A DNA stretch of 64,000 nucleotides from Escherichia coli (GTDB lineage Bacteria > Pseudomonadota > Gammaproteobacteria > Enterobacterales > Enterobacteriaceae), in assembly GCF_051903065.1 (NCBI RefSeq), contig NZ_CP178438.1; one strand, given 5' to 3'. Positions 32,694-52,165 of the stretch are shown in pieces. Numbering within the stretch: the stretch's first letter is position 1; the number at the start of each line of letters is the position of its first letter. The notes beneath the pieces were generated by a model that worked only from the letters and a program-made list of their open reading frames with translations, searched no databases and was not told the DNA's origin. The position numbers were made by a program, and so were the translations under genes.

Positions 32694-32702
32694 TCCCCCT
32701 TC

Positions 32703-32734
32703 AAGGCGCTGCATCGACAGCGCCTTTTCTTTAT
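32703..32734 (+). terminator. Rho-independent terminator of metG
   Basis: aaggcgctgcatcgacagcgcctt followed by ttctttat. Confidence 0.6.
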
Positions 32735-32833
32735 AAATTCCTAAAGTTGTTTTCTTGTTTGTTCAACGCTCTTAATTTTTTTCATTAACTGCTAGCATCC
32801 GCTTATAACTGGATATAAATACAGGGAACGCGG

Positions 32834-35800
32834 ATGAAGAGTTATATCTATCAGGACGAAAAATCACATAAATTCTGGGCGGTGGAGCAGCAGGGAAACG
32901 AGTTGCATATCAGCTGGGGAAAAGTTGGTACCCAAGGGCAAAGCCAGGTAAAAAATTTTGCTGATGTTGCAGCAGCGGAAAAAGCGAAACTGAAGCTTAT
33001 CGCGGAGAAAACGAAAAAAGGCTATGTGGAAAATGCTTCAGCAAACGTGCATATCCCCCCCATTACCAAAGCCACTCCTGAAGTTGAAACTTCCCCTGAG
33101 AGTAAAAACCAACGCCCCTGGCTGGCTGATGATGCGGTCATTCGGCTAACTGACGATATTAATCGATTTGCTTTTCCTCATCGCTCTCGCCCCAGAGAGA
33201 TCAATTATCTGCACAAAGATGGTCAAATATGGCAGCTCATCGCGAATAACACCAGAGCATATGATCCCGCCAACAATTACCGTTCTTATCCAGAAAACTG
33301 GCAGCAGGCTTTTGCTGAGTTACAAATGCGAGTTCAGGGTAATCAACAGACAGGGAGTGTGCAATCTGATGCAGCATTGCTCTGGAGTTTCTGGAACTCT
33401 TACTCTGCAGATGAACTGGTCGATGACTTAGTCATTCGCTGTGGTCTGGAAAGTGCCGTTGAAATTGCCCTTCTCGCTCTTCAACTTAGATATAAACCAG
33501 TAAAAGCCGACGTCACCACCATCATTCCCCCTGATCTCAAAGCAGAATCGCTACCGAACTGGCATCAACGTCTATGTCATCATCTTTCACTCGCTTCAGA
33601 AGATGAGTGGCAACGCTGTGTAGATAAGGTACTCGCGGCTATTCCCTCGCTATCCCCAGCACGGCAACCTTTTGCGGCGTTACTGATCCCTGAACGCCCG
33701 GATATCGCCAATGCTATGGCGCTACATTATGCAGATCAAAACGTTCCGGCGATGACCTGGTTAAGTATGATGGTAAGCGATGATGTTGCCCTGGCCATCC
33801 AGGAAAAATATGGTTTCCCACCGCTATATAATGATTTCCGCAAATATCTGGCTACGTTACTGGCAAATAATGGAATGCGTGGTGTAAGCCGGATTCTTCT
33901 CAAGCTACCTGTCGACTATCCCGTAAAATACACGGACCTTTTCACTCACATACACGCCAATGCTGAAAATCTTGTCAAATGGCTATGGAAAACGAATCAC
34001 CCGGATGCGATTCAAATTCTGATCCTCGGTGTAAATGGCAAGAAAAAGCACCTGGAATACTTAAGCAAAGCCTGCCAAAAACATCCCGCTGCGGCTATTG
34101 CCGCTTATGCTACTTTGCTGGCAATACATGAAAATAATGAGTGGCGTAAAGCGCTTGTCAAACTGATTACCGCCACGCCAGAGTTAGTATGCGAGGTCAT
34201 TCCCTGGGTTAATGCTAAGGCGGCAGGCATCTTATCTGAATGTCGTCCGCTGCCAATAGCTGAAGAATGTGAATATGCCACTGTGGATATGTTGCCGGAG
34301 CTGCTGGTCGCTCCACCGTGGGTAATAAATAAGAAAAAGAATGTCATACCCGTATTTGATTTACCGGTACTTCCCATTCCTGCCGTCACGGATATCACAC
34401 CAGGAATTACAGAGTTAATCAGTCATACTGACATATCCAGATTCAGTGAAATCGCGCAATATCAGGCATCACAGCAAACCTTATTTACCGACCTGCCACT
34501 AATTGAAAAAGAAAGCTGGGAGACATCTTTCATTCCTTTTACACCAGAACAACAAATTCTTTGGCAATTAGGTTTTAATGAATGGCTGCATTGCGAAAAT
34601 GACTTACATGAAAAAAAATATATACCGCAAAGCGCTGTTGATGCCTTGTTGCGCTTTGATTTTTCAGCACTAAAAGCTGAGTTTGCGAAATATCACAACA
34701 ATGCCAACAAAAGCTGGAATCTATCTGCGCTTTGTTACTTACCGGGACAACAGGCGATCTCATTTCTCAACCAAATAATCATTGAGGAGCGATATTCAGG
34801 TGAGAAAGAGATTCTGGCGGTTTTTGGTAGTACGGCCATTCCTGCGTTTATGACCTGCTTGCAACGAGATCATCAACGCCTGTGGATATTCACCCTTTTT
34901 ATTGGAGCCAGTGAACTAGCCTTACCAATGGCGCAGCGGTTACAGAAAAAAATAGCTTACAAGGATGCCGTTAATTGGCTGGCAAATAACCCGCGCCATG
35001 CCGCCGCCGGGCTACTGCCTTTGGCGCTGGGCAAACCGTGCCAAAATCGGGAATATGCCCGCCAGGCACTCCTCCTGCTAGTGAAATTAAACCAGCGAGA
35101 AACGATTGAGGAAATCGCCCAAGGATATAATCAACCTGATGTTTTAGCTGCGCTGGCAACATTATTTGATAGCGACCCACTGGAAGAATATCCTGCAAAA
35201 ATCGCCCCACTGCCCGGCTTTTATCAGTTCCCCTTATGGCGCAGACCTCGGCTTAAAAGTAACAACCTGCCTCTGCCAGATGACGCTATGCGCCACCTCG
35301 GCACAATGTTGAGCTTTCCACGCGACATTACCTCCTACGCTGGGCTGGCGATCATCAAAGAGACCTTCACCCGCGAATCACTGGCTGACTTTGGCTGGGA
35401 TCTCTACACGGCATGGACAGAAGCAGGCGCACCCGCAAAAGAGAACTGGGCATTTACCTCGCTGGGGATTCTAGGCAATGACGACACCGCGCGTAAACTA
35501 ACCCCGCTCATCCGCGCCTGGCCGGGTGAATCCCAGCATAAACGCGCGGTTTACGGGCTGGATGTGTTAGCCAGTATCGGTAGCGACATTGCGCTTATGT
35601 TGCTTAATGGCATTGCGCAAAAGATTAAATTCGTTGCATTACAGGAATATGCCAGCGACAGAATCAATATGGTCGCCGAAAATCGCGGACTGACAATGGC
35701 CGAACTGGAAGATCGCCTGGCACCGGATTTAGGGCTTGATAGCAGTGGCTCGCTAATATACTGGATTTCGGCCCCCGCAAATTCACCGTTGGTTTTGACG

Positions 35801-36636
35801 AAACCTTAAAACCTGTAGTGTGCGATGCAAACGGCAAAGTCCTGAAAGATTTACCTAAGACAAACCAGAGCGATGATAAAACACTGGCAACTGACGCAGT
35901 TAATCTCTTCAAACAGTTGAAAAAAGATGTTCGTGCTATCGCCAGCCAGCAAATTACCCGTCTGGAACAGGCTATGTGCCAGCGCAGACGCTGGACGGCA
36001 GAGCAGTTCCGCCTGTTTCTGGTGGAGCATCCGCTGGTACGTCACTTAACCCGACGGCTGTTATGGGGGGTTTATAACGATGAAAACGCCCTTATCATCT
36101 GTTTTCGCGTGGCAGAAGACAGCACTTACAGCGATGCGCAGGATGAGTTATTCACGCTGCCAGCAGGAAACATCGGTATACCGCATGTGCTGGAAATCCC
36201 CCCTGAATCCGCCGCTGCATTCAGGCAAATTTACGTTGATTACGAACTGCTTCCCCCTTTCCAACAGCTCGAACGTGGTAGTTACCACCTTGCTGATAAC
36301 GAACGTAATGTCCATGAATTGTCACGCTGGAACGGACGTCTCTGCCAGGCCGGACGCATTGTCGGGCTGGAACGCAGAGGCTGGCAACGTCTGGAAGAAA
36401 GCGGCAGCGTCTATGCGATGCGCAAATCTACCCCTTATGGTGCTCTCGAACTTGAAACAGAACCTTTTTCATTAATTTATGGCGAAACGGGGTATAGCGA
36501 CCTGCTGCCTGTCGAAAGCGTAAAAATCACCGCCCCTTATGATCGCTATGGTAAACAATCCTCACCCACTTTCTCCGTGCTCGACGACATCACCGCCAGC
36601 GAGCTGATTAACGACATTGAATCACTGTTTGATTAA
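32834..36636 (+). pseudogene. Giant WGR-domain / DUF4132-family protein (molR/yehH-like), disrupted by a frameshift near 35757
   Basis: ORFs 32834..35809 (991 aa) and 35818..36636 (272 aa) are in different frames; joined they are colinear with the intact 1249-aa paralog downstream; break is at ctaatatactggat. Confidence 0.75.
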
Positions 36637-36648
36637 AAGGATTTAACA

Positions 36649-39600
36649 ATGAAAACCTATATTTATCAGGACGAAAAATCACATAAATTCTGGGCGGTGG
36701 AGCAGCAGAGAAACGAGCTGCATATCAACTGGGGCAAAGTCGGCACTAACGGGCAAAGTCAGGTAAAAAGCTTTGCTGATGCTGCGGCGGCAGAAAAAGC
36801 GGAACTGAAGCTGATTGCGGAGAAGGTGAAGAAGGGGTATGTGGAAGAATTATCTTCACCATCCCAACCCGCAATCAAAATAGAAACGATCGAAGTAGAT
36901 ACAGCTGACGTGGCAGAAACCAAAGTCGTATTTGACCAAAGTATGGTTGTTGAACCTGCTGAGACACCATGCCCGTGGCTGACAGATGATTCCACTATCC
37001 ATCTATCGGAGAAAAAGTCTCAGGGGGCCTTACCTTCCCGACGTTTTCCTGGGGATGCTGTAAGCGAACCACAAGACAGCCTCCTTATGAATTTAGGTCA
37101 GGATATTCATAATCTATCAGGAAAATTAACAACATACGATTTCAGTGCATGTTCTGCTAACTGGCAGCAGAATATCAATGAAGCTCTCGCTAATGGTCCA
37201 CTTTCTCCTGCTGCGTTGGCTGTACAGGTTGTTCTGGTTTCACGTAAATTCTGGGGCGAATGCCCTGAACTCATGGATGAAATTGTCTATGTCTACGGAC
37301 TAGAATTTGCCGTGGATATGTTTATTGCCATGCAATATATCTCGTTCGATTGCACTTATCACAGAACAAGCATACACATAACTTTTCAGCCATTATTAAT
37401 CCACGCACATTGTGTTACCCCCTTTGACGTTCGACTGCGTAAACATTTGGCTCTAGCAGAAGAAACTTTGTGGCAACGCTGTGTAGATAAATTCATTACA
37501 GCTTTGCCTGATATTCCTCCCGTTCAACAACCGATGGTAGCGCTAATGCTACCGGAACGCCCGGAGATTGCAGAAGAAGTCGCACGACGGTTACTGGAGC
37601 AGAAAAATGGCCACACTGTTGAATGGCTGAAACTTGTTGTACAAGAATCTTCCTTGCTCAAAGCACTGGAATCTTATTGCGCGTACGACCTTTTTAATGA
37701 CTATTACCATGGTTGCATCTGGAATGTCACCGTTTTGCAGGAGCAAGGGATTGCCGGAATCGCTCGCTTCGCCCCCTATGCTTATGCTGATCTTTGCGGA
37801 AGTATTCTCGCAGAGATCAATCACCCACAAGCATTAATGCTACTTATACGTGTGTCTGGCAAAACTAAACGCTGCCATGAACGAATGACTACGGCTTGCG
37901 CTGCGTTCCCACACGCAGCACTGGCAGCACTGGCGGAACTTCTAGTGCAAAAAGAAGAGAATAGTTGGCGCATTATGCTAATGACGATGCTTATCTCGCA
38001 ACCGACACTAGCAGAACAGGTCATTCCCTGGCTTTCGACACCCGCAGTTGCAGTGCTGAAATCATGCCAGCAACAACTGACACAGCCCTCAAACCATGCC
38101 TGCGTCGATCTACTGCCTGCCGTATTAGTCTCACCGCCCTGGCTTTCGAAAAAGAAAAAATCTGTAATGCCGGTATTGGATTTAACGCCATTACCGTTGG
38201 AGTCATGCTGTACATTGACCGAGACGGCAGAAAAAGAGATTCATGCAAGGCATCGCTGGCACGCACATCAAATAGACATCGGCCAAAAAGAGGATATTCA
38301 GAACTACCTGGCACGTCTGGGTTTCAATCGCTGGAATAATGGCCAGTATATGAAAGCGCCTGATGCTGCTATAGAGCTCTGGCAAAGGGGAGATTATTCC
38401 GCGCTGATCAGCGAATTTAAAACCTTCTGGCACTCCTATCAACGGGAATGGCAGCTTTACATGTTAGCCGCCCTGCCTATCGAAAAGACAGCGCAGGCGT
38501 GGAATGTCCTCAGTAAAGAGCCACACGTCGGTGTCGAGTTTGTCATGACGCACCTGCAACTCACTGGGTTACAGGGTTTTATTCACTCCTTTTCACGCTA
38601 CCCGCAAGAAGCTCTGCCTGTAGCACAATATTTTGCGGCTATCGAATTAGCGCCACTGATCGCCCGTGCCTTCAACAAACTCAAAACCCTACGACAAGAC
38701 GCCCGTAGCTGGCTGCTAAAATACCCGGAACACGCCATAACCGGCCTGCTGCCTTCGGCGCTCGGCAAAGCCGGTGAAGCACAGGATAACGCTCGCGCTG
38801 CCTTACGTATGCTTACCGAAAACGGTCATCAGCCATTACTGCAAGAAATCGCCCGGCGTTATAACCAGCCGGAAGTAACCGACGCGGTGAACGCTCTGCT
38901 TGCGCTCGATCCCTTAGATAATCACCCGACAAAAATCCCCACTCTTCCGGCCTTTTATCAGCCATCGCTCTGGACGCGCCCGGTATTAAATACAAACGCC
39001 CAATCACTGCCAGATAGCGCACTCCAGCACCTCGGTGAAATGCTCCGCTTCCCTCAGGAAGAGGCCCTGTATCCGGGATTATTGCAGGTGAAAGATGCCT
39101 GTACCGCCGACTCACTGGCTGAATTTGCCTGGGATCTGTTTACCGCCTGGTTGACTGCGGGCGCACCGTCGAAAGAGAGTTGGGCGTTCACTGCGTTAGG
39201 CGTTCTTGGTAACGATGACACCGCCCGCAAACTGACGCCATTAATACGCGCCTGGCCTGGTGAATCCCAGCATAAACGCGCCACCGTTGGGTTGGATATT
39301 CTCGCCGCTATCGGTAGTGATATCGCCCTGATGCAGCTTAACGGTATTGCCCAGAAACTGAAATTCAAAGCATTACAGGAGCGGGCAAAAGAAAAAATTG
39401 CCGACATTGCCGAAAGCCGCGAACTCACGGTGGCAGAGCTTGAAGATCGGTTAGCACCGGATCTCGGTCTGGATGATAACGGTTCGTTGCTGCTGGATTT
39501 CGGCTCACGCCAGTTCACCGTCAGCTTTGATGAAACCTTAAAACCGTTTGTGCGTGATGTTTCTGGCAGCCGTCTGAAAGACCTGCCCAAACCAAACAAA

Positions 39601-40398
39601 AGCGATGATGAATCACAGGCGAACGATGCTGTTAACCGCTACAAATTGCTGAAAAAAGATGCGCGTACCGTCGCCGCCCAGCAGGTAGCAAGGCTGGAAT
39701 CCGCCATGTGCCTGCGCCGCCGCTGGTCGCCGGAAAACTTCCAGCTCTTCCTGGTTGAGCATCCGTTGGTTCGCCACTTAACCCGCCGTCTGATTTGGGG
39801 TGTTTATAGCGCCGAAAACCAGCTACTGGCTTGCTTTCGCGTAGCGGAAGATAACAGCTACAGTACCGCTGACGATGATCTTTTCACCCTGCCGGAAGGC
39901 GATATCTCTATCGGCATTCCTCACGTTCTGGAAATATCACCAACGGATGCTGCCGCCTTTGGTCAGCTTTTTGCCGACTACGAACTGCTACCACCGTTCC
40001 GTCAGCTTGACCGTAACAGTTACGCCCTGACAGAAGCCGAGCGCAACGCCAGCGAACTGACCCGCTGGGCAGGCAGAAAATGCCCGAGCGGTCGGGTCAT
40101 GGGGCTGGCGAATAAAGGCTGGATAAAGGGCACCCCGCAGGATGGAGGCTGGATCGGCTGGATGATCAAACCTCTCGGTCGCTGGTCGTTAATCATGGAA
40201 ATCGATGAAGGTTTTGCGGTAGGCATGTCGCCAGCCGAACTGAGTGCCGAGCAGCTCTTAAGCAAGCTGTGGCTATGGGAAGGCAAAGCAGAAAGCTATG
40301 GCTGGGGGAGTAATTCAACACAGGAAGCGCAGCTCTCCGTACTCGATGCCATCACCGCCAGCGAGCTGATTAACGATATTGAAGCTCTGTTTGAATAA
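36649..40398 (+). CDS. Giant WGR-domain / DUF4132-family protein (molR/yehI paralog), intact
   Basis: 1249 aa; N-terminal 66 aa near-identical to the upstream gene (MKTYIYQDEKSHKFWAVEQQ...WGKVG); 12-bp gap from upstream gene. Confidence 0.8.
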   Translation: MKTYIYQDEKSHKFWAVEQQRNELHINWGKVGTNGQSQVKSFADAAAAEKAELKLIAEKVKKGYVEELSSPSQPAIKIETIEVDTADVAETKVVFDQSMVVEPAETPCPWLTDDSTIHLSEKKSQGALPSRRFPGDAVSEPQDSLLMNLGQDIHNLSGKLTTYDFSACSANWQQNINEALANGPLSPAALAVQVVLVSRKFWGECPELMDEIVYVYGLEFAVDMFIAMQYISFDCTYHRTSIHITFQPLLIHAHCVTPFDVRLRKHLALAEETLWQRCVDKFITALPDIPPVQQPMVALMLPERPEIAEEVARRLLEQKNGHTVEWLKLVVQESSLLKALESYCAYDLFNDYYHGCIWNVTVLQEQGIAGIARFAPYAYADLCGSILAEINHPQALMLLIRVSGKTKRCHERMTTACAAFPHAALAALAELLVQKEENSWRIMLMTMLISQPTLAEQVIPWLSTPAVAVLKSCQQQLTQPSNHACVDLLPAVLVSPPWLSKKKKSVMPVLDLTPLPLESCCTLTETAEKEIHARHRWHAHQIDIGQKEDIQNYLARLGFNRWNNGQYMKAPDAAIELWQRGDYSALISEFKTFWHSYQREWQLYMLAALPIEKTAQAWNVLSKEPHVGVEFVMTHLQLTGLQGFIHSFSRYPQEALPVAQYFAAIELAPLIARAFNKLKTLRQDARSWLLKYPEHAITGLLPSALGKAGEAQDNARAALRMLTENGHQPLLQEIARRYNQPEVTDAVNALLALDPLDNHPTKIPTLPAFYQPSLWTRPVLNTNAQSLPDSALQHLGEMLRFPQEEALYPGLLQVKDACTADSLAEFAWDLFTAWLTAGAPSKESWAFTALGVLGNDDTARKLTPLIRAWPGESQHKRATVGLDILAAIGSDIALMQLNGIAQKLKFKALQERAKEKIADIAESRELTVAELEDRLAPDLGLDDNGSLLLDFGSRQFTVSFDETLKPFVRDVSGSRLKDLPKPNKSDDESQANDAVNRYKLLKKDARTVAAQQVARLESAMCLRRRWSPENFQLFLVEHPLVRHLTRRLIWGVYSAENQLLACFRVAEDNSYSTADDDLFTLPEGDISIGIPHVLEISPTDAAAFGQLFADYELLPPFRQLDRNSYALTEAERNASELTRWAGRKCPSGRVMGLANKGWIKGTPQDGGWIGWMIKPLGRWSLIMEIDEGFAVGMSPAELSAEQLLSKLWLWEGKAESYGWGSNSTQEAQLSVLDAITASELINDIEALFE

Positions 40399-40407
40399 GG
40401 AAAGAGC

Positions 40408-43400
40408 ATGGACAAGGAATTACCGTGGCTGGCGGATAACGCCCAAGTGGAACTGAAATATAAAAAAGGCAAAACACCACTCAGCCATCGCAATTGGCCG
40501 GGCGAACCGGTGCCTGTTATCACTGAAAGCCTCATCCAGACACTGGGTGATGAATTGCTACAAAAAGCAGAGAAGAAAAAAAACATTGTCTGGCGTTATG
40601 AAAATTTTTCACTGGAGTGGCAGTCCGCCATTACGCAGGCCATCAACTTGATCGGCGAACACAAACCCTCAGTCCCGGCCCGCACAATGGCGGCGCTAGC
40701 CTGTATCGCGCAAAATGACAGCCAACAGTTGCTCGACGAAATCGTCCAACAAGAGGGGCTGGAATATGCGACTGAGGTGGTGATTGCACGCCAGTTTATT
40801 GCACGGTGTTATGAAAGTGATCCTCTGGTAGTCACATTGCAGTATCAGAACGAGGACTATGGCTATGGTTATCGCTCAGAAACCTATAACGAATTCGATC
40901 TCCGACTGCGTAAACACCTCTCTCTGGCAGAGGAAAGCTGCTGGCAGCGTTGCGCCGACAAACTCATTGCCGCACTGCCAGGAATAACCAAAGTTCGCCG
41001 TCCTTTTATTGCGCTGATCCTCCCGGAAAAGCCTGAAATAGCCAATGAACTCGCCAGTCTTGAAAGCTCCCGGTCAAGTCTCCATTCAAAGGAGTGGTTA
41101 AAGGTCGTTGCTACTGATAATACGGCGGTAAAAAAACTCGAACGATACTGGGGCCTGGACGTATTTAGCGATCGCGAAGCCAGCTACATGTCACAAAAAA
41201 ACCACTTCGGCTACGCGGCCTGCGCCGCCCTTTTGCGCGAACAAGGACTGGCAGCCATTCCGCGCCTCGCGATGTATGCCCATAAAGAAGATTGCGGCAG
41301 TCTGTTGGTACAAATTAACCATCCGCAGGTCATCCACACCTTGCTACTGGTGGCTGATAAAAACAAACCCAGCCTGCAACGTGTGGCTAAATACAGTAAA
41401 AACTTCCCCCACGCGACGCTCGCGGCACTGGCAGAACTGCTGGCGTTAAAAGAACCACCAGCCCGCCCTGGTTATCCAATCATCGAAGACAAAAAGCTGC
41501 CTGCCCAGCAAAAAGCACGCGATGAATACTGGCGTACGCTGTTACAAACGCTGATGGCATCGCAGCCACAACTGGTAGAAGAGGTGATGCAGTGGTTAAG
41601 TACTCAAGCCCGGGCAGTACTGAATAGTTATTTATTGGCACCGCCCAAACCGGTTATTGATGGCACCGATAACAGCAATCTGCCTGAAATCCTCGTTTCA
41701 CCACCGTGGCGTAGTAAGAAAAAAATGACAGCTCCACGTCTTGATTTGGCACCGCTCGAATTAACCCCGCAAGTTTACTGGCAACCAGGCGAACAAGAGA
41801 GGCTTGCCTCCACTGAGTCTGCCCGTTATTTCAGCACGGAATCTCTTGCGGAACGCATGGAACAAAAAAGTGGGCGAGTTGTATTACAGGAACTGGGTTT
41901 TGGGGATGATGTATGGCTGTTTCTGAATTATATACTCCCCGGAAAACTGGATGCTGCACGCAATTCACTCATTGTTCAGTGGCATTACTACCAGGGGCGG
42001 GTTGAAGAGATCCTGAATGGCTGGAACTCCCCGGAAGCACAATTAGCAGAACAGGCGCTCCGCAGCGGTCACATAGAAGCGTTAATTAACATATGGGAAA
42101 ATGACAACTACTCACGTTATCGTCCGGAAAAGAGTGTCTGGAACCTGTATTTATTGGCACAGTTGCCGCGTGAGATGGCTTTGACCTTCTGGCTGCGTAT
42201 CAATGAGAAAAAACATCTGTTCGCGGGTGAGGACTATTTTCTCAGTATCCTCGGATTGGATGCGCTACCAGGTCTGCTGTTGGCTTTTTTACATCGTCCA
42301 AAAGAAACATTTCCGTTAATTTTAAATTTTGGCGCAACAGAACTGGCCCTGCCCGTTGCCCGCGTCTGGCACCGTTTTGCGGGCCAGCGTAATCTGGCTC
42401 GCCAGTGGATTTTACAATGGCCGGAACATACGGCTACTGCACTTATCCCTCTTGTCTTTATCAAACCCAGCGATAATAGCGAAGCCGCATTACTTGCCCT
42501 GCGTTTACTGTACGAACAGGGACATGGCGAGTTGCTGCAAACCGTGGCAAACCGCTGGCAACGCGCTGATGTATGGCCTGCCCTGGAGCAGTTGCTTAAA
42601 CAGGGTCCAATGGACATTTACCCGGCACGCATTCCAAAAGCCCCTGATTTCTGGCATCCGCAAATGTGGTCCAGGCCGCGCCTTATCACTAATAATCAAC
42701 CTGTTACCGATGACGCTCTGGAAATTATCGGCGAAATGCTGCGCTTTACCCAGGGGGGACGTTTTTATAGCGGTCTGGAACAACTGAAAACGTTTTGCCA
42801 GCCACAAACGCTGGCCGCTTTTGCCTGGGATCTCTTCACTGCGTGGCAACAAGCTGGTGCCCCCGCAAAAGACAACTGGGCATTTCTGGCGTTAAGTCTC
42901 TTTGGTGACGAAAGCACGGCTCGGGATCTGACGACACAGATCCTCGCCTGGCCACAAGAAGGCAAATCTGCCCGTGCTGTCAGCGGCCTGAACATCCTTA
43001 CCCTGATGAATAATGATATGGCGCTGATGCAGCTGCATCATATATCGCAACGGGCTAAATCCCGCCCCTTACGTGATAACGCGGCGGAATTTCTTCAGGT
43101 GGTCGCAGAAAATCGCGGGCTAAGCCAGGAAGAGCTAGCGGACAGATTAGTCCCAATCCTGGGCCTTGATGATCCGCAGGCGTTGAGTTTTGATTTTGAT
43201 CCCCGGCAGTTTACCGTTCGCTTCGATGAAAACCTCAACCCGGTTATCTTTGATCAGCAAAACGTTCGCCAGAAAAGTGTTCCCCGGTTGCGTGCCGATG
43301 ACGATCAACTGAAAGCGCCCGAGGCACTGGCCCGACTAAAAGGGCTAAAAAAAGATGCTACTCAGGTGAGCAAAAACCTGCTCCCGCGTCTTGAAGCTGC

Positions 43401-44040
43401 CCTACGTACCACCCGACGCTGGTCGCTGGCAGATTTTCATTCTCTGTTTGTTAATCATCCCTTTACCCGCCTGGTTACCCAGCGATTAATATGGGGGGGT
43501 TATCCGGCAAATGAACCGCGTCGTTTACTCAACGCCTTTCGTGTGGCCGCAGAGGGGGAGTTCTGCAATGCGCAGGATGAGCCCATTGACCTTCCTGCGG
43601 ATGCTCTGATTGGCATTGCCCACCCGTTAGAAATGACAGCAGAAATGCGCAGTGAATTTGCACAGCTTTTTGCCGATTACGAAATTATGCCGCCTTTTCG
43701 CCAGTTGTCGCGCCGCACGGTGCTGCTCACACCTGACGAGTCAACCAGTAACAGCCTGACTCGCTGGGAAGGTAAATCCGCTACCGTTGGGCAACTTATG
43801 GGAATGCGATACAAAGGCTGGGAATCAGGCTATGAGGACGCATTTGTCTATGACCTGGGTGAGTACCGGCTGGTCCTTAAGTTTTCACCCGGTTTTAACC
43901 ACTACAATGTTGATAGCAAAGCGCTAATGAGCTTCCGTTCTCTTCGAGTGTACCGTGACAATAAATCCGTCACTTTTGCCGAACTTGATGTGTTTGATTT
44001 GAGAGAGGCGTTAAGCGCACCTGACGTCATTTTCCATTAA
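40408..44040 (+). CDS. yehI: Giant DUF4132-family protein YehI (paralog lacking the N-terminal WGR module)
   Basis: 1210 aa; shares conserved C-terminal blocks with the two upstream genes (e.g. DDTARKLTPLIRAWPGESQHKRA-like, RRWS..F..FLVEHP..R); 9-bp gap from upstream gene. Confidence 0.8.
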   Translation: MDKELPWLADNAQVELKYKKGKTPLSHRNWPGEPVPVITESLIQTLGDELLQKAEKKKNIVWRYENFSLEWQSAITQAINLIGEHKPSVPARTMAALACIAQNDSQQLLDEIVQQEGLEYATEVVIARQFIARCYESDPLVVTLQYQNEDYGYGYRSETYNEFDLRLRKHLSLAEESCWQRCADKLIAALPGITKVRRPFIALILPEKPEIANELASLESSRSSLHSKEWLKVVATDNTAVKKLERYWGLDVFSDREASYMSQKNHFGYAACAALLREQGLAAIPRLAMYAHKEDCGSLLVQINHPQVIHTLLLVADKNKPSLQRVAKYSKNFPHATLAALAELLALKEPPARPGYPIIEDKKLPAQQKARDEYWRTLLQTLMASQPQLVEEVMQWLSTQARAVLNSYLLAPPKPVIDGTDNSNLPEILVSPPWRSKKKMTAPRLDLAPLELTPQVYWQPGEQERLASTESARYFSTESLAERMEQKSGRVVLQELGFGDDVWLFLNYILPGKLDAARNSLIVQWHYYQGRVEEILNGWNSPEAQLAEQALRSGHIEALINIWENDNYSRYRPEKSVWNLYLLAQLPREMALTFWLRINEKKHLFAGEDYFLSILGLDALPGLLLAFLHRPKETFPLILNFGATELALPVARVWHRFAGQRNLARQWILQWPEHTATALIPLVFIKPSDNSEAALLALRLLYEQGHGELLQTVANRWQRADVWPALEQLLKQGPMDIYPARIPKAPDFWHPQMWSRPRLITNNQPVTDDALEIIGEMLRFTQGGRFYSGLEQLKTFCQPQTLAAFAWDLFTAWQQAGAPAKDNWAFLALSLFGDESTARDLTTQILAWPQEGKSARAVSGLNILTLMNNDMALMQLHHISQRAKSRPLRDNAAEFLQVVAENRGLSQEELADRLVPILGLDDPQALSFDFDPRQFTVRFDENLNPVIFDQQNVRQKSVPRLRADDDQLKAPEALARLKGLKKDATQVSKNLLPRLEAALRTTRRWSLADFHSLFVNHPFTRLVTQRLIWGGYPANEPRRLLNAFRVAAEGEFCNAQDEPIDLPADALIGIAHPLEMTAEMRSEFAQLFADYEIMPPFRQLSRRTVLLTPDESTSNSLTRWEGKSATVGQLMGMRYKGWESGYEDAFVYDLGEYRLVLKFSPGFNHYNVDSKALMSFRSLRVYRDNKSVTFAELDVFDLREALSAPDVIFH

Positions 44041-44100
44041 AACACAGCGGGCAGTGATGCAACTGCCTGTTATTAACACGACTTACCAGCGGGGAAAGCG

Positions 44101-44418
44101 ATGATCGTGCAAAAAGAGCTGGTTGCTATTTACGATTATGAGGTCCCTGTACCTGAAGATCCGTTTTCCTTCAGACTTGAGATCCATAAATGCTCTGAAT
44201 TATTTACAGGTTCCGTCTATCGACGGGAGCGATTCCGGCTACATCCAACATTTCATCAACGTGATCGAGAAGATGCTGACCCGCTAATAAATGATGCGTT
44301 GATTTATATAAGAGATGAGTGTATTGATGAGCGGAAATTACGAGGTAAATCACCTGAAACTGTAATAGCAATTTTTAATCGTGAACTACAGAATATATTC
44401 AACCAAGAAATAGAATAA
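44101..44418 (+). CDS. yehK: Small hypothetical protein YehK
   Basis: 105-aa ORF, AT-rich, immediately downstream of yehI. Confidence 0.7.
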   Translation: MIVQKELVAIYDYEVPVPEDPFSFRLEIHKCSELFTGSVYRRERFRLHPTFHQRDREDADPLINDALIYIRDECIDERKLRGKSPETVIAIFNRELQNIFNQEIE

Positions 44419-44856: not shown

Positions 44857-44936
44857 TTGGTACGAAATGTTGCACAATCAGCAAGTTAGCGTCACTGTAG
44901 TAAATAAAAGAACCTGCCTCACCAGCAGGTTTTTTT
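44857..44936 (+). ncRNA. Orz-type antitoxin sRNA (copy 1)
   Basis: Starts after the tataat box, ends at hairpin acctgcctcaccagcaggt + T7; 5' region guugguacgaaauguugc pairs over 18 nt (one G.U) with the zor 5' UTR (plus 44693-44710); ends approximate. Confidence 0.65.
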
Positions 44937-45464: not shown

Positions 45465-45547
45465 TTGGAACACGATGTTGCACAGGCTGTGGTGTTAGGC
45501 CTGAAAATAGTAAATAAAAGAACCTGCCTCACCAGCAGGTTTTTTTA
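45465..45547 (+). ncRNA. Orz-type antitoxin sRNA (copy 2)
   Basis: guuggaacacgauguugcac complementary (one mismatch) to the copy-2 zor 5' UTR; terminator acctgcctcaccagcaggt + T-run; ends approximate. Confidence 0.65.
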
Positions 45548-45658
45548 TTTACTATGATCTGCTTTCCAGATATTTTTTGCTCAAACAACTAATGCGCCAA
45601 ACATTTATTGCGCGTAAAATATCGTTTATTTCATTAATACATTTCAGGGATGAATATA

Positions 45659-46746
45659 TGTCACCGCAGAATAATCATCTGCAGCGTCCGCCTGCTGCTG
45701 TGTTATACGCCGATGAACTGGCAAAATTAAAACAAAATGATACCGCACCTTGCCCGCCCGGTTGGCAGTTAAGTTTGCCTGCGGCCCGTGCTTTTATCCT
45801 TGGCGATAGCGCGCAAAATATTAGCCGTAAAGTGGTGATTAGTCCCTCCGCTGTCGAACGTATGTTAGTCACTCTTGCCACCGGACGCGGTTTGATGTTG
45901 GTGGGGGAACCTGGCACCGCAAAATCTCTCCTGTCTGAATTACTGGCAACCGCTATTAGCGGCGATGCCGGGTTAACCATCCAGGGCGGTGCATCTACTA
46001 CCGAAGATCAAATCAAGTACGGCTGGAACTACGCCCTGCTTATCAATCATGGTCCATCAACGGAAGCGCTGGTCCCTGCCCCGCTTTACCAGGGAATGCG
46101 CGACGGCAAAATCGTCCGTTTTGAAGAGATAACGCGTACACCGCTGGAAGTGCAAGACTGTCTGTTAGGTATGCTTTCTGACAGGGTGATGACGGTGCCG
46201 GAACTCACTGGTGAAGCCAGTCAGCTCTATGCGCGAGAAGGCTTTAATATTATTGCCACTGCCAATACCCGCGATCGCGGCGTCAATGAAATGAGTGCTG
46301 CGCTAAAGCGTCGCTTCGATTTTGAAACTGTCTTTCCGATTATGGATTTCGCCCAGGAGCTGGAGCTTGTCGCCAGTGCTTCGGCGCGTTTGCTGGCCCA
46401 TAGCGGTATTCCGCATAAAGTGCCTGACGCGGTACTGGAGTTACTGGTCCGCACTTTCCGCGATCTGCGTGCCAACGGCGAAAAGAAAACGTCAATGGAT
46501 ACACTAACAGCGATTATGTCCACCGCTGAAGCCGTGAACGTGGCCCACGCTGTGGGCGTCCGCGCCTGGTTTTTGGCGAATCGCGCAGGTGAGCCAGCCG
46601 ATCTGGTGGACTGTATTGCCGGAACCATCGTTAAAGATAACGAAGAAGATCGCGCTCGTCTGCGCCGTTACTTCGAACAGCGTGTCGCCACACATAAAGA
46701 AGCTCACTGGCAGGCTTATTATCAAGCCCGCCACCGCCTGCCGTGA
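45659..46746 (+). CDS. yehL: MoxR-like AAA+ ATPase YehL
   Basis: 362 aa from MSPQNNHLQ (SD agggatgaatatATG); Walker A GEPGTAKS, Walker B-like IVRFEEI. Confidence 0.88.
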
Positions 46747-46756
46747 GGAAAGATGC

Positions 46757-49036
46757 ATGAGCGAGCCGTTAATTGTCGGCATCCGGCATCATAGTCCGGC
46801 CTGCGCCCGGCTGGTGAAATCGTTAATCGAAAGCCAGCGGCCACGATACGTGTTGATTGAAGGCCCGGCTGATTTTAATGACCGGGTAGACGAACTGTTT
46901 TTAGCCCACCAGCTTCCGGTAGCTATTTACAGTTATTGCCAGTATCAGGACGGTGCAGCCCCCGGGCGTGGTGCCTGGACGCCATTTGCTGAATTTTCGC
47001 CGGAGTGGCAGGCGCTACAAGCCGCTCGTCGTATTCAGGCACAAACTTACTTCATCGATTTGCCTTGCTGGGCACAGAGTGAAGAAGAGGACGATTCGCC
47101 TGATACGCAAGAGGAAAGCCAGACCTTGCTGCTGCGTGCCACCCGCATGGATAACAGCGATACCCTGTGGGATCACTTGTTCGAAGATGAAAGCCAGCAA
47201 ACTGCATTACCCTCTGCACTGGCGCACTATTTTGCCCAACTGCGGGGCGATTTCCCCGGCGATGCACTCAATCGTCAGCGCGAAGCCTTTATGGCTCGCT
47301 GGATTGGATGGGCGGTGCAGCAAAATAATGGCGACGTGTTAGTCGTCTGCGGTGGCTGGCACGCTCCGGCACTGGCAAAAATGTGGCGCGAATGCCCGCA
47401 GGACATTAACAAGCCAGAATTGCCCTCGCTGGCAGATGCCGTTACAGGTTGTTATCTCACACCCTACAGTGAAAAGCGCCTTGATGTGCTGGCAGGATAC
47501 CTTTCAGGAATGCCTGCCCCGGTCTGGCAAAGCTGGTGCTGGCAGTGGGGCTTACAGCAGGCGGGAGAACAACTGCTAAAAACGGTTCTTACCCGTTTGC
47601 GCCAACACCACTTGCCTGCTTCGACCGCGGATATGGCTGCCGCTCATCTGCATGCGATGGCGCTGGCACAGTTGCGCGGACATAAACTACCGTTACGCAC
47701 TGACTGGCTGGATGCCATAGCAGGCTCGCTGATTAAAGAAGCCCTGAACGCGCCGTTGCCGTGGAGCTATCGCGGAGTTATTCATCCCGACACCGATCCG
47801 ATTCTGCTAACGTTGATAGACACATTAGCGGGTGACGGATTCGGTAAACTTGCCCCTTCTACGCCACAACCGCCTCTGCCAAAAGATGTCACCTGCGAAC
47901 TGGAACGTACCGCAATCTCTCTTCCGGCGGAGCTTACCTTAAATCGCTTTAACCCCAATGGACTAGCGCAAAGTCAGGTGTTACATCGGCTGGCAATACT
48001 GGAGATCCCAGGGATTGTACGCCAGCAGGGAAGCACACTGACACTTGCAGGCAACGGTGAAGAACGCTGGAAATTAACCCGCCCGCTTAGCCAGCATGCG
48101 GCATTGATTGAGGCCGCCTGCTTTGGTGCCACACTCCAGGAAGCCGCACGCCATAAATTAGAAGCCGATATGCTGGACGCGGGTGGAATCGGCAGTATCA
48201 CCACATGTCTTAGCCAGGCGGCGTTAGCGGGTCTGGCGTCCTTCAGTCAACAATTACTGGAGCAACTCACATTATTAATCGCCCAGGAAAATCAATTTGC
48301 CGAAATGGGGCAGGCGCTGGAAGTCCTTTATGCCTTATGGCGGTTAGATGAAATCAGCGGTATGCAAGGCGCGCAGATATTGCAGACGACGTTATGTGCG
48401 GCTATCGATCGCACGCTCTGGCTGTGTGAATCCGACGGCAAACCGGATGAAAAGGAGTTTCACGCTCACCTGCATAGCTGGCAGGCGCTTTGCCATATCC
48501 TGCGCGATCTACATAGCGGCGTTAATTTACCCGGCGTTTCTCTTTCTGCGGCGGTGGCCTTACTGGAACGCCGCAGTCAGGCAATTCATGTCCCGGCGCT
48601 GGATCGCGGCGCGGCTCTTGGCGCACTGATGCGTCTGGAACATCCCAACGCCAGTGCCGAAGCGGCGCTGACAATGCTGGCGCAGTTATCCCCGGCACAA
48701 TCCGGCGAGGCGCTGCACGGTTTGCTGGCGCTCGCCCGTCATCAACTGGCCTGCCAGCCGGCATTTATCGCCGGTTTCAGCAGTCATTTAAATCAACTGA
48801 ATGACGACGATTTTATTAACGCCCTGCCCGATTTACGCGCGGCGATGGCCTGGCTACCACCACGAGAACGCGGGACGCTGGCGCATCAGGTGCTTGAGCA
48901 TTATCAACTGGCGCAACTTCCCGTTTCGGCGCTGCAAATGCCGTTGCATTGTCCACCACAAGCCATTGCACATCATCAACAACTCGAACAGCAGGCACTG
49001 GCATCGCTGCAAAACTGGGGAGTTTTCCATGTCTGA
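46757..49036 (+). CDS. yehM: Large uncharacterised protein YehM (partner of MoxR ATPase)
   Basis: 759 aa from MSEPLIVGIRHHSPACARL; 10 bp after yehL stop; stop overlaps yehP start by 8 nt. Confidence 0.85.
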   Translation: MSEPLIVGIRHHSPACARLVKSLIESQRPRYVLIEGPADFNDRVDELFLAHQLPVAIYSYCQYQDGAAPGRGAWTPFAEFSPEWQALQAARRIQAQTYFIDLPCWAQSEEEDDSPDTQEESQTLLLRATRMDNSDTLWDHLFEDESQQTALPSALAHYFAQLRGDFPGDALNRQREAFMARWIGWAVQQNNGDVLVVCGGWHAPALAKMWRECPQDINKPELPSLADAVTGCYLTPYSEKRLDVLAGYLSGMPAPVWQSWCWQWGLQQAGEQLLKTVLTRLRQHHLPASTADMAAAHLHAMALAQLRGHKLPLRTDWLDAIAGSLIKEALNAPLPWSYRGVIHPDTDPILLTLIDTLAGDGFGKLAPSTPQPPLPKDVTCELERTAISLPAELTLNRFNPNGLAQSQVLHRLAILEIPGIVRQQGSTLTLAGNGEERWKLTRPLSQHAALIEAACFGATLQEAARHKLEADMLDAGGIGSITTCLSQAALAGLASFSQQLLEQLTLLIAQENQFAEMGQALEVLYALWRLDEISGMQGAQILQTTLCAAIDRTLWLCESDGKPDEKEFHAHLHSWQALCHILRDLHSGVNLPGVSLSAAVALLERRSQAIHVPALDRGAALGALMRLEHPNASAEAALTMLAQLSPAQSGEALHGLLALARHQLACQPAFIAGFSSHLNQLNDDDFINALPDLRAAMAWLPPRERGTLAHQVLEHYQLAQLPVSALQMPLHCPPQAIAHHQQLEQQALASLQNWGVFHV

Positions 49037-50165
49037 ACTGAACGATCTTCTGACCAACCGTGAGCTACAACGCTGGCGATTAATTCTTGGCGAAGCGGCA
49101 GAAACGACGCTTTGTGGGCTGGATGACAACGCCCGGCAGATAGACCACGCGCTGGAGTGGCTGTATGGGCGCGATCCTGAACGGCTCCAGCGTGGTGAAC
49201 GTTCCGGTGGATTAGGTAGCTCAAATCTCACCACCCCTGAGTGGATCAACAGTATTCACACGCTGTTTCCGCAACAGGTGATTGAGCGGCTGGAAAGCGA
49301 TGCCGTACTGCGCTACGGCATTGAAGATGTGGTGACGAATCTCGACGTGCTGGAACGTATGCAGCCTTCTGAAAGCCTGCTACGCGCCGTTTTGCACACC
49401 AAACATCTGATGAACCCCGAAGTACTGGCTGCCGCCCGCCGGATAGTGCGCCAGGTTGTTGAAGAAATTATGGCTCGACTGGCAAAGGAAGTTCGTCAGG
49501 CTTTTTCTGGTGTCCGCGATCGCCGTCGCCGCTCATCTATTCCACTGGCGCGAAACTTTGATTTCAAAAGTACTCTTCGCGCCAATCTGCAACACTGGCA
49601 CCCGCAACACGGCAAGTTGTATATCGAATCCCCCCGCTTTAACAGCCGCATTAAACGCCACAGTGAACAATGGCAACTGGTCTTACTGGTTGATCAAAGC
49701 GGATCGATGGTGGACTCGGTGATCCACTCTGCGGTGATGGCGGCCTGTTTGTGGCAGTTACCCGGCATTCGTACCCATCTGGTGGCGTTTGACACCAGCG
49801 TGGTTGATCTCACGGCAGACGTTGCCGATCCGGTAGAGTTATTAATGAAAGTGCAATTAGGCGGCGGAACCAATATCGCCAGTGCCGTGGAATATAGTCG
49901 GCAACTTATTGAACAACCAGCGAAAAGCGTCATTATCCTCGTGAGCGATTTTTACGAAGGGGGTTCATCATCATTACTGACGCATCAGGTGAAAAAGTGT
50001 GTCCAGAGCGGCATCAAAGTGCTGGGATTGGCAGCGCTCGATAGCACAGCTACGCCTTGCTATGACCGCGATACGACCCAGGCGCTGGTTAATGTCGGCG
50101 CACAAATAGCCGCCATGACGCCGGGCGAGCTGGCATCATGGCTTGCGGAGAATCTTCAGTCATGA
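49029..50165 (+). CDS. yehP: von Willebrand factor A (VWA) domain protein YehP
   Basis: 378 aa from MSELNDLLT; MIDAS motif DxSxS (LLVDQSGSM); upstream part of the 454-aa ORF overlaps yehM and is judged spurious. Confidence 0.85.
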   Translation: MSELNDLLTNRELQRWRLILGEAAETTLCGLDDNARQIDHALEWLYGRDPERLQRGERSGGLGSSNLTTPEWINSIHTLFPQQVIERLESDAVLRYGIEDVVTNLDVLERMQPSESLLRAVLHTKHLMNPEVLAAARRIVRQVVEEIMARLAKEVRQAFSGVRDRRRRSSIPLARNFDFKSTLRANLQHWHPQHGKLYIESPRFNSRIKRHSEQWQLVLLVDQSGSMVDSVIHSAVMAACLWQLPGIRTHLVAFDTSVVDLTADVADPVELLMKVQLGGGTNIASAVEYSRQLIEQPAKSVIILVSDFYEGGSSSLLTHQVKKCVQSGIKVLGLAALDSTATPCYDRDTTQALVNVGAQIAAMTPGELASWLAENLQS

Positions 50166-52165
50166 ATTCACTACGTCCGGAATTATTAGAACTGACACCG
50201 CAGGCACTGACGGCGTTAAGCAATGCCGGTTTTGTTAAGCGCAGCCTTAAGGAACTGGAAAATGGCAACGTCCCGGAAATCAGCCATGAGAACGGCGCTT
50301 TAATCGCCACCTTCAGTGACGGTGTCCGTACCCAGCTGGCGAACGGTCAGGCACTGAAAGAGGCTCAGTGCACCTGCGGGGCTAGCGGCATGTGCCGTCA
50401 TCGCGTGATGCTGGTGTTAAGTTATCAGCGACTTTGTGCCACCACCCGGCCCACGGAAAAAGAAGAAGAGTGGCAGCCTGCAATCTGGCTGGAAGAACTG
50501 GCTACCCTGCCCGATGCCACCCGCAAACGTGCACAGGTGCTGGTCGCTAAAGGCATCACCATTGAGTTGTTCTGTGCGCCTGGCGAAATTCCCTCAGCCC
50601 GCTTACCGATGAGCGATGTGCGTTTTTATTCCCGCAGCAGTATTCGTTTCGCCCGCTGTGATTGTATTGAAGGCACACTTTGCGAACATGTCGTACTGGC
50701 TGTGCAGGCCTTCGTCGAGGCCAAAACTCAGCAAGCGGAATTTACTCATTTAATCTGGCAGATGCGCAGCGAACACGTCACATCATCTGACGACCCGTTT
50801 GCCAGCGAAGAAGGCAACGCGTGTCGTCAATATGTTCAGCAATTAAGCCAGGCATTATGGCTTGGCGGCATCAGCCAGCCGCTTATTCACTACGAGGCCG
50901 CTTTCAGCCGCGCGCAGCAAGCGGCGGAACGCTGCAACTGGCGCTGGGTGAGTGAATCGCTACGGCAACTGCGCGCCAGCGTTGATGCCTTCCACGCCCG
51001 CGCCAGCCACTATCATGCAGGAGAATGCTTACGTCAGCTTGCGGCATTAAACAGTCGATTAAATTGCGCACAAGAGATGGCCCGGCGCGACAGTGTTGGT
51101 GAAGTTCCTCCTGTGCCGTGGCGCACGGTCGTTGGCTCTGGCATTGCCGGAGAAGCAAAGCTTGATCATCTGCGGCTGGTGTCTTTAGGTATGCGTTGCT
51201 GGCAGGATATTGAGCATTATGGTTTACGCATCTGGTTTACCGATCCCGACACCGGCAGTATTTTGCACCTTTCGCGCAGTTGGCCGCGAAGTGAACAGGA
51301 AAACTCACCGGCAGCTACGCGTCGGCTGTTTAGTTTTCAGGCTGGCGCACTGGCGGGTGGGCAAATTGTTTCACAAGCAGCAAAACGCAGTGCCGATGGC
51401 GAGCTGCTGTTAGCTACCCGCAACCGCTTAAGCAGCGTTGTGCCGCTGTCGCCTGATGCCTGGCGAATGTTGAGCGCGCCGTTACGCCAGCCGGGCATTG
51501 TGGCTTTGCGGGAATATTTACGCCAGCGTCCCCCCTCCTGCATACGGCCTCTTAATCAGGTCGATAACTTATTTATTCTGCCGGTCGCTGAGTGTATTTC
51601 GCTCGGTTGGGATAGCAGCCGCCAGACGCTGGATGCGCAGGTAATCAGCGGCGAAGGTGAAGATAATCTGCTGACGTTATCACTGCCAGCCTCAGCCAGC
51701 GCGCCTTATGCCGTTGAACGCATGGCGGCGCTTTTGCAACAAACAGACGACCCCGTGTGTCTGGTTTCTGGCTTTGTCAGTTTTGTTGATGGGCAATTGA
51801 CACTGGAACCACAGGTAATGATGACAAAGACTCGTGCCTGGGCGCTGGACGCAGAAACTGCGCCTGTGGTGGCATCACTACCTTCTGCCAGCGTTCTGCC
51901 TGTGCCGTCTACTGCTCATCAGTTGCTGATGCGCTGCCAGGCATTACTTATTCAACTGCTCCATAACGGCTGGCGCTATCAGGAACAGAGTGCTATTGGT
52001 CAGGCAGAGTTGCTGGCGAATGACCTCACCGCGGTGGGTTTTTATCGGCTGGCACATGTATTGGGACAATTTCGTAATACAGAAAGCGAGGCACGGGTAG
52101 AAGCAATGAATAACGGTGTTTTGCTGTGCGAACAATTATTCCCCATGCTTCAGCAACAAGGATGA
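50162..52165 (+). CDS. yehQ: SWIM zinc-finger protein YehQ
   Basis: Start ATG overlaps yehP stop (ATGA); two CxCx(n)CxH SWIM-type motifs (CTCGASGMCRH, CDCIEGTLCEH). Confidence 0.82.
   Translation: MNSLRPELLELTPQALTALSNAGFVKRSLKELENGNVPEISHENGALIATFSDGVRTQLANGQALKEAQCTCGASGMCRHRVMLVLSYQRLCATTRPTEKEEEWQPAIWLEELATLPDATRKRAQVLVAKGITIELFCAPGEIPSARLPMSDVRFYSRSSIRFARCDCIEGTLCEHVVLAVQAFVEAKTQQAEFTHLIWQMRSEHVTSSDDPFASEEGNACRQYVQQLSQALWLGGISQPLIHYEAAFSRAQQAAERCNWRWVSESLRQLRASVDAFHARASHYHAGECLRQLAALNSRLNCAQEMARRDSVGEVPPVPWRTVVGSGIAGEAKLDHLRLVSLGMRCWQDIEHYGLRIWFTDPDTGSILHLSRSWPRSEQENSPAATRRLFSFQAGALAGGQIVSQAAKRSADGELLLATRNRLSSVVPLSPDAWRMLSAPLRQPGIVALREYLRQRPPSCIRPLNQVDNLFILPVAECISLGWDSSRQTLDAQVISGEGEDNLLTLSLPASASAPYAVERMAALLQQTDDPVCLVSGFVSFVDGQLTLEPQVMMTKTRAWALDAETAPVVASLPSASVLPVPSTAHQLLMRCQALLIQLLHNGWRYQEQSAIGQAELLANDLTAVGFYRLAHVLGQFRNTESEARVEAMNNGVLLCEQLFPMLQQQG

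Follow-up and report, generated by a model that had tools for sequence, protein, structure and literature searches.

What does the yehLMPQ operon of Escherichia coli do, and is it complete as it stands? The question arises from a stretch of E. coli chromosome of 64,000 nucleotides (the window), whose identity over the region is 100% to strain 23CRST031 and 96.7% to K-12. A preliminary description had read four genes there as a self-contained module of a MoxR-type ATPase, a large partner, a VWA protein and a SWIM zinc-finger protein with no assigned function, and had offered it as a candidate undescribed system, possibly one that senses nucleic acid or acts in defence. We find that the unit is larger. 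It consists of five co-conserved families, and the DUF4132 giants encoded upstream are an integral part of it. The four genes of the operon are:

45658..46746, plus strand: yehL, 362 residues, AAA_5/MoxR-class ATPase, the putative motor
46757..49036, plus strand: yehM, 759 residues, DUF5682; ChaN/TraB/TIKI-like domain at about residues 1-240, then a C-terminal HEAT/ARM-like solenoid
49029..50165, plus strand: yehP, 378 residues, CoxE-type VWA protein with a metal ion-dependent adhesion site (MIDAS), the putative adaptor
50162..52165, plus strand: yehQ, 667 residues, SWIM zinc finger, helical bundles and a β-rich, possibly OB-like (oligonucleotide/oligosaccharide-binding) region at about residues 330-560

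RefSeq gives all four genes the same coordinates as direct reading. The start of yehL had been placed one base late, at 45659; reading from that position runs into stops, and the true start is 45658. The other junctions were as first described, with a 10-bp gap between the yehL stop and the yehM start, an 8-nt overlap of yehM and yehP (ATGTCTGA) and an ATGA overlap of yehP and yehQ. An alternative in-frame ATG for yehQ lies at 50138, while homologue alignments and the RefSeq annotation favour 50162. Across the loci tabulated below, the median gaps are 3 nt (L-M), -4 nt (M-P), -4 nt (P-Q) and 30 nt (I-L, where I is the DUF4132 family of yehI). The tight yehLMPQ junctions, kept across phyla, are not due to chance.

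Five gene families are inherited together

We tabulated 85 distinct loci with family-specific hidden Markov models (HMMs), 80 of them from a scan of one genome per species. At 65 of the 85 loci the I, L, M, P and Q families share a strand, and most of the others are seemingly cut by contig ends. Because the same four genes accompany one to five DUF4132 giants, arranged in tandem, at these 65 loci, the DUF4132 array is the fifth component. The four-gene unit was therefore drawn too small, and DUF4132, which had been listed only as a neighbour, is co-conserved with it.

Homologues of yehL, yehM and yehP keep the same order on one strand at nearly all of the 80+ loci with enough flank, yehP standing two genes downstream of yehL. 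The block is found in Enterobacterales, Xanthomonadales and Burkholderiales (Gamma- and Betaproteobacteria), in Myxococcota and in many Actinomycetota. To the question of whether DUF4132, MoxR, VWA and SWIM genes co-occur outside Enterobacteriaceae, which the preliminary description had raised, the answer is that they do, in several phyla. The order is LMPQI in Burkholderia and is shuffled to L-M-I-P-Q on an alphaproteobacterial (Sinorhizobium) plasmid; retention of the gene set despite the changed order is good evidence for functional linkage. Distant YehM homologues (31-48% identity) had as contig neighbours, each time, a DUF4132 giant with or without WGR, an AAA_5 protein, a VWA_CoxE protein and a protein of about 650 residues alignable with YehQ, around the DUF5682 protein itself. 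At least 560 of about 100,000 species-representative genomes encode DUF5682, whose proteins fall into 2,276 clusters at 50% identity. A single fused polypeptide comprising DUF5682 and VWA is seen in at least two lineages. The gene-neighbourhood survey of the loci revealed no sixth family conserved beside the block; yehK was considered as a member and rejected, as among these loci it was seen only in E. coli.

More distant variants retain AAA_5, DUF5682 and VWA but exchange the large partner. In the uncultured genome GCA_022841245.1 (locus L005:15598-23468), a second, partial module lies right downstream of the first and encodes a 501-residue protein, a HEAT_2 protein that replaces the large partner, AAA_5, DUF5682 and VWA; upstream, the opposite strand carries a DNA-ligase-like gene. 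On a Hymenobacter plasmid (Bacteroidota; L091:4183-12422), a DUF5691 giant, an AAA ATPase, a 203-residue protein, DUF5682 and VWA are found with no SWIM or DUF4132 gene, and a PDDEXK nuclease gene adjoins on the opposite strand. At a further locus (L006:7689-12939), which may be another variant architecture, the gene for a divergent DUF5682 protein of 979 residues adjoins an FHA-domain gene and an AAA_5 gene of opposite orientation; a patatin gene is also close by, and the contig ends there.

Domains and predicted folds of the operon products

A Pfam search of the four proteins agreed with the initial reading of a MoxR/VWA module with a SWIM protein. YehL has the expected MoxR-type AAA+ core with a GEPGTAKS Walker A motif (AAA_5, 2.6e-34), and its Walker A, Walker B, sensor and RRF arginine motifs are kept in at least 95% of 88 homologues. 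The nearest solved sequences are midasin AAA domains (3e-10), followed by MoxR 2r44. One of seven MoxR subfamilies is named after YehL, RavA being the other E. coli MoxR (PMC3893208), so that the class of YehL was already known from the publication of that subfamily. In line with the preliminary description, RavA-ViaA is, in the literature searched, the only E. coli MoxR pair reported as characterised (PMC3893208).

The VWA domain of YehP, with its DQSGSM MIDAS, was likewise recovered (VWA_CoxE, 1.5e-71, full model covered) and ends at residue 372 of 378. The MIDAS motifs DQSGS, GGGT and SDxxEG are largely kept in 80 homologues, and YehP also has a weak match to a cobaltochelatase model. A +1 frameshift site has been reported in K-12 yehP (PMC2790909). 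At 49888-49903 of the window, the Shine-Dalgarno-like GGAG and the GGT codon of that site are lost, and the site, published as 'highly conserved', is therefore not universal.

Both CxCxnCxH knuckles noted in YehQ are present, though their Pfam SWIM scores are weak (1.3e-3 and 0.21); the first (C70, C72, C78, H80) is invariant in 73 homologues. The predicted structure is confident (predicted local distance difference test, pLDDT, 92.9) and comprises the N-terminal SWIM region, the helical bundles and the β-rich region. In Foldseek, the top matches of the β-rich region were nearly all tandem OB-fold DNA binders (LEF-3, RPA70 DBD-A/B, HIN, POT1, CTC1). These matches are weak, with best probabilities of 0.92-0.99 and E-values of only 1.7e-3 to 5e-2, and we treat the predicted tandem OB-like region as a lead rather than a result.

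YehM, the large partner, is a DUF5682 protein (Pfam, 6.5e-99). Its structure is confidently predicted as an N-terminal domain with the α/β fold shared by TIKI, TraB, ChaN and Ere, with a HEAT-like solenoid after it. The residues R10-H11, E35, H51, E83, D101, R175-E176 and G199-G200-x-H202 are invariant or nearly so. Among them H11, E35, R175 and H202 are invariant and E176 nearly so, in the order expected for the superfamily motifs. Presumably these residues occupy the places of the superfamily's paired GxxH, Glu and Arg motifs. At sequence level, YehM had no match to the TIKI/TraB/PrgY/ChaN/erythromycin-esterase families. Searches of the YehM, YehP and YehQ sequences and profiles against the PDB returned nothing useful, and isolated domains searched against NCBIfam returned nothing.

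The DUF4132 array

Three DUF4132 paralogues lie upstream of the operon in the window:

32834..36636, plus strand: first WGR-DUF4132 paralogue (molR/yehH position), frameshifted, with open reading frames at 32834-35809 and 35818-36636; RefSeq 'frameshifted'
36649..40398, plus strand: second WGR-DUF4132 paralogue, intact, 1249 residues: WGR, HEAT-like body and DUF4132
40408..44040, plus strand: yehI, third DUF4132 paralogue, 1210 residues, without WGR

Pfam placed WGR at residues 7-67 (1.7e-17) and DUF4132 at residues 973-1158 (1.1e-51) of the second paralogue, and DUF4132 at residues 954-1138 of YehI (1.9e-46). The three share 37-41% identity (first and second 41%, YehI and second 37%), and the first has the same N-terminal region that scores as WGR in the second. 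A profile built from 61 YehI homologues weakly matched alphaRep HEAT-type repeat proteins in the PDB, with no other matches. WGR was detected in at least one DUF4132 protein at 55 of 75 loci. Within E. coli, the array is mostly 90-95% identical, compared with 95-99% for yehLMPQ. The three-gene form seen here (window 32700-44100) covers at least 80% of the query in 927 of 5426 E. coli genomes; most have two genes.

Distribution within E. coli and mobile elements

Of 5426 complete E. coli genomes, 5396 carry the yehLMPQ module at a single fixed locus, and 5202 retain at least 80% of the yehLMPQ region at 95-99% identity. The block is flanked by metG and by yehR/btsSR, and its G+C content exceeds that of its flanks. 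The block is rare on plasmids (38 of 72,556 records) and almost absent from phages (1 of 50,697 records). PHROG families 30700, 33984, 31592, 29006, 20839 and 36295 gave near-perfect matches to proteins of 45658-52165 and 36649-44418. We discounted these matches, and rejected the phage origin that they might suggest, because phage genomes, when searched directly, yielded essentially nothing; the families look like E. coli chromosome swept into prophage predictions rather than genuine phage families.

Between yehK and yehL, Rfam identified two OrzO-P antitoxin RNAs of the zorO/zorP type I toxin-antitoxin system:

44863-44936: OrzO-P antitoxin RNA
45471-45546: OrzO-P antitoxin RNA

Each copy has a strong terminator. 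The type I toxin-antitoxin island that had been placed beside the module is therefore real, but it does not belong to the module: the insertion (about 0.9 kb) varies between strains, and it lies outside the unit because K-12 lacks it and has a gap of 306 bp.

Regulation and a possible link to DNA damage

One candidate regulatory site was found ahead of the array:

32807..32826, plus strand: candidate LexA-box-like site AACTGGATATAAATACAGGG, its end 8 nt upstream of the start codon (ATG) of the first DUF4132 gene

The site agrees with 15 of 20 consensus positions, has CTG-N10-CAG intact and is the sole site in the window with at least 13 of 20; a perfect CTGT-N8-ACAG does not occur within the 64 kb. 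molR is among the listed E. coli SOS genes (PMC3978071), and its promoter is activated by BglJ-RcsB (PMC3950696). In Deinococcus radiodurans, the DUF4132 protein DRA0166 and the WGR protein DR2173 are mitomycin C-induced in an IrrE/DdrO-dependent manner (PMC8533742). A few GAAC-N4-GTTC boxes at actinomycete loci were rejected as regulatory, as they lie inside conserved DUF4132 coding sequence.

A putative remodelling machine and its rivals

The best-supported reading, which we put forward tentatively, is that of a MoxR-VWA remodelling machine that is anchored on YehM, works with DNA-binding partners and is recruited to a DNA structure, most likely in a DNA-damage response. The machine itself is suggested by what was observed: co-inheritance of the block across phyla, conserved ATPase and MIDAS motifs and the DUF5682-VWA fusions. 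On this model, the products of yehLMPQ and of the upstream DUF4132 genes would together form a single ATP-driven remodelling machine with five components, belonging to the MoxR-VWA class. RavA-ViaA, CbbQ-CbbO and NorQ-NorD suggest by analogy that a YehL hexamer would be coupled through the MIDAS adaptor YehP, itself held on the YehM solenoid, and ATP hydrolysis would remodel or activate a partner from the same block. Judging by fold and domain content, YehQ (SWIM and OB-like tandem) and most DUF4132 giants, with their WGR, may be the DNA-facing partners, and the TIKI/TraB/ChaN-type domain of YehM, with a metal-dependent hydrolase or ligand-binding pocket, may be the catalytic or cofactor-handling end. 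It is on account of the DNA-facing domain content of these partners that we propose recruitment to a DNA structure (single-stranded DNA, breaks, lesions). The variable DUF4132 paralogues may be interchangeable clients or specificity subunits. The nucleic-acid link suspected in the preliminary description thus gains some support, from WGR on the DUF4132 partners, the weak tandem-OB-like match in YehQ and the LexA-like box. The invariant first SWIM knuckle, the SOS listing of molR and the mitomycin C-induced D. radiodurans proteins also speak for a DNA link.

Several observations weigh against this reading. WGR was undetected at 20 of the 75 loci, the second SWIM knuckle is missing in some lineages, and no DNA-repair gene is among the conserved neighbours of the block. 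No LexA-type box was found upstream of the module in the other taxa examined, including Serratia, Erwinia and Thorsellia; in the window strain, two terminators lie between the DUF4132 array and yehLMPQ. Both yehL and yehM are reported to be H-NS-repressed and to have an upstream region of their own; they are up in hns/stpA mutants, with H-NS bound upstream (PMC3686432). Several lineages carry damaged copies. In K-12 (W3110, L088:16763-18766), yehQ is a pseudogene with a premature TAA at codon 615, where the window strain has GAA and an intact frame of 667 residues, and molR is a pseudogene, frameshifted with an internal stop. Shigella sonnei lineages 2 and 3 are without yehL and yehM, and in an ST131 sublineage a transposon sits within the DUF4132 region. 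Strains can therefore do without the system, which is probably defective in K-12, the strain of most genome-wide screens; K-12 is in effect a natural mutant, and K-12 screens may for that reason have been uninformative.

A more specific proposal, that the five components form a widespread and hitherto unrecognised DNA-surveillance machine, we consider unlikely. Here the WGR-DUF4132 and SWIM/OB proteins would detect foreign DNA, single-stranded DNA or DNA breaks; a split motor resembling midasin, made up of the YehL ring, the YehM solenoid and the YehP MIDAS, would spend ATP on extracting or activating a factor, and the TIKI-like pocket of YehM would be the catalytic output. If true, it would add a new branch to the DNA-damage or immune responses of bacteria, one overlooked because the K-12 alleles are broken.

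Anti-phage or anti-mobile-element defence also seems improbable. SWIM/OB and WGR would then sense invading DNA, MoxR-VWA would set a threshold and either the YehM hydrolase domain or DUF4132 would be the effector, an arrangement like that of the vWA-MoxR ternary conflict systems. Conflict systems whose MoxR-vWA core derives from CoxD-CoxE-type pairs do exist (PMC7159879), and the tandem DUF4132 genes, variable in copy number and more divergent within E. coli than yehLMPQ, are what such a system might show. The raised G+C content, the H-NS repression, the frequent inactivation and the toxin-antitoxin insertion inside the locus point the same way. However, none of eight proteins matched a PADLOC-DB 2.0 defence HMM at E <= 0.01, a third component of the VMAP, iSTAND or β-propeller type is lacking, the VWA protein carries no fused effector domain and no defence neighbour is conserved. 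The locus is fixed and core in E. coli, rare on plasmids and all but absent from phages, and the near-identical PHROG matches are E. coli chromosome in prophage calls. The earlier 'defence-like' label thus found no direct support.

It is similarly doubtful that the block is a cofactor- or metal-insertion chaperone like CoxD-CoxE, NorQ-NorD or the class I chelatases, with the ChaN-like pocket of YehM holding the cofactor and the DUF4132 giants as clients. YehP is a strong Pfam VWA_CoxE member with its weak cobaltochelatase-model match, most characterised MoxR-VWA pairs mature metalloenzymes, and the layout of AAA, VWA and a protein of ~1200 residues recalls CobS/CobT/CobN; the ChaN-like pocket itself and the old molR name, 'molybdate metabolism regulator' (annotation quoted in PMC3950696), would fit as well. 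Against this, no target-enzyme or cofactor-biosynthesis gene is conserved nearby, and the giants carry WGR and DUF4132 only, without a signature of CobN/BchH or any other chelatase. A metal-insertion system would not be expected to have SWIM, WGR and OB-like domains. The molybdoenzymes of K-12, moreover, work despite its molR and yehQ pseudogenes.

Least probable is that the block is, in E. coli, a silenced and decaying remnant of an old horizontal acquisition with no current role, functional only in other lineages such as actinomycetes: the H-NS repression, the K-12 pseudogenes and the frameshifted first paralogue of the window strain, the lineages with deletions or a transposon insertion and the many truncated YehM clusters in the protein database would suit it, but yehLMPQ is full length here and well conserved in most E. 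coli genomes, all catalytic motifs are intact and the overlapping start and stop codons are kept.

Comparison with known systems

No functional paper on the operon was found in the full-text literature searched, where DUF4132 is mentioned and DUF5682 is not, and the original view that its function is unassigned stands. The literature on SWIM, WGR, MoxR and vWA combinations yielded no description of the five-family system. To call it an undescribed system is right as regards function, which is unreported, but not as regards class, which is known. MoxR-VWA pairs are among the least understood AAA+ machines, and for the YehL subfamily no function, client or phenotype is reported in the literature that we found.

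With the characterised MoxR/VWA pairs (RavA-ViaA, CbbQ-CbbO, NorQ-NorD, CoxD-CoxE), the block shares an AAA_5 ATPase encoded beside a VWA/MIDAS protein, YehP being of the CoxE type, and the motifs are conserved. It differs in having no client enzyme nearby, such as the CO dehydrogenase of CoxD-CoxE, and in its DUF5682 protein, SWIM protein and DUF4132 giants, which occur in none of those pairs.

The vWA-MoxR ternary conflict systems (Kaur et al. 2020, PMC7159879) likewise have a MoxR and CoxE-like vWA core, large extra components and a variable, diversifying partner. In contrast to them, the Yeh block has no VMAP, iSTAND or β-propeller component and no vWA-fused effector, and it is core chromosomal rather than patchy. 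YehL matches Pfam bpMoxR at only 0.0021 over 50 residues, and the conflict-system survey of MoxR-vWA modules mentions neither SWIM, WGR nor YehL (PMC7159879).

Midasin (Rea1/Mdn1), whose AAA domains are the nearest solved sequences to YehL, likewise links an AAA_5 ring to a long helical solenoid and to a MIDAS domain. It is, however, a single polypeptide of ~4,900 residues with six AAA modules that acts on pre-60S ribosomes, whereas the Yeh components are separate genes and the YehL hexamer is presumed. The class I chelatases (BchI/BchD/BchH; CobS/CobT/CobN) resemble the block in their AAA+ motor, VWA subunit and giant of ~1,200 residues; the DUF4132 giants have no detectable CobN/BchH similarity, and the chelatases have no SWIM or DUF5682 component. 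Compared with the TIKI/TraB/PrgY/ChaN/erythromycin-esterase superfamily, the YehM domain stands apart in being fused to a solenoid of 500 residues within a MoxR-VWA operon.

The block is therefore neither a catalogued defence system nor a categorically new kind of system. Two proteins previously listed as 'unknown' contain a hydrolase-like pocket and probable DNA-binding modules, and the five-part unit, these predicted domains and the K-12 defect (the premature stop in yehQ and the molR pseudogene) turn a 'y-gene' blank into concrete experiments.

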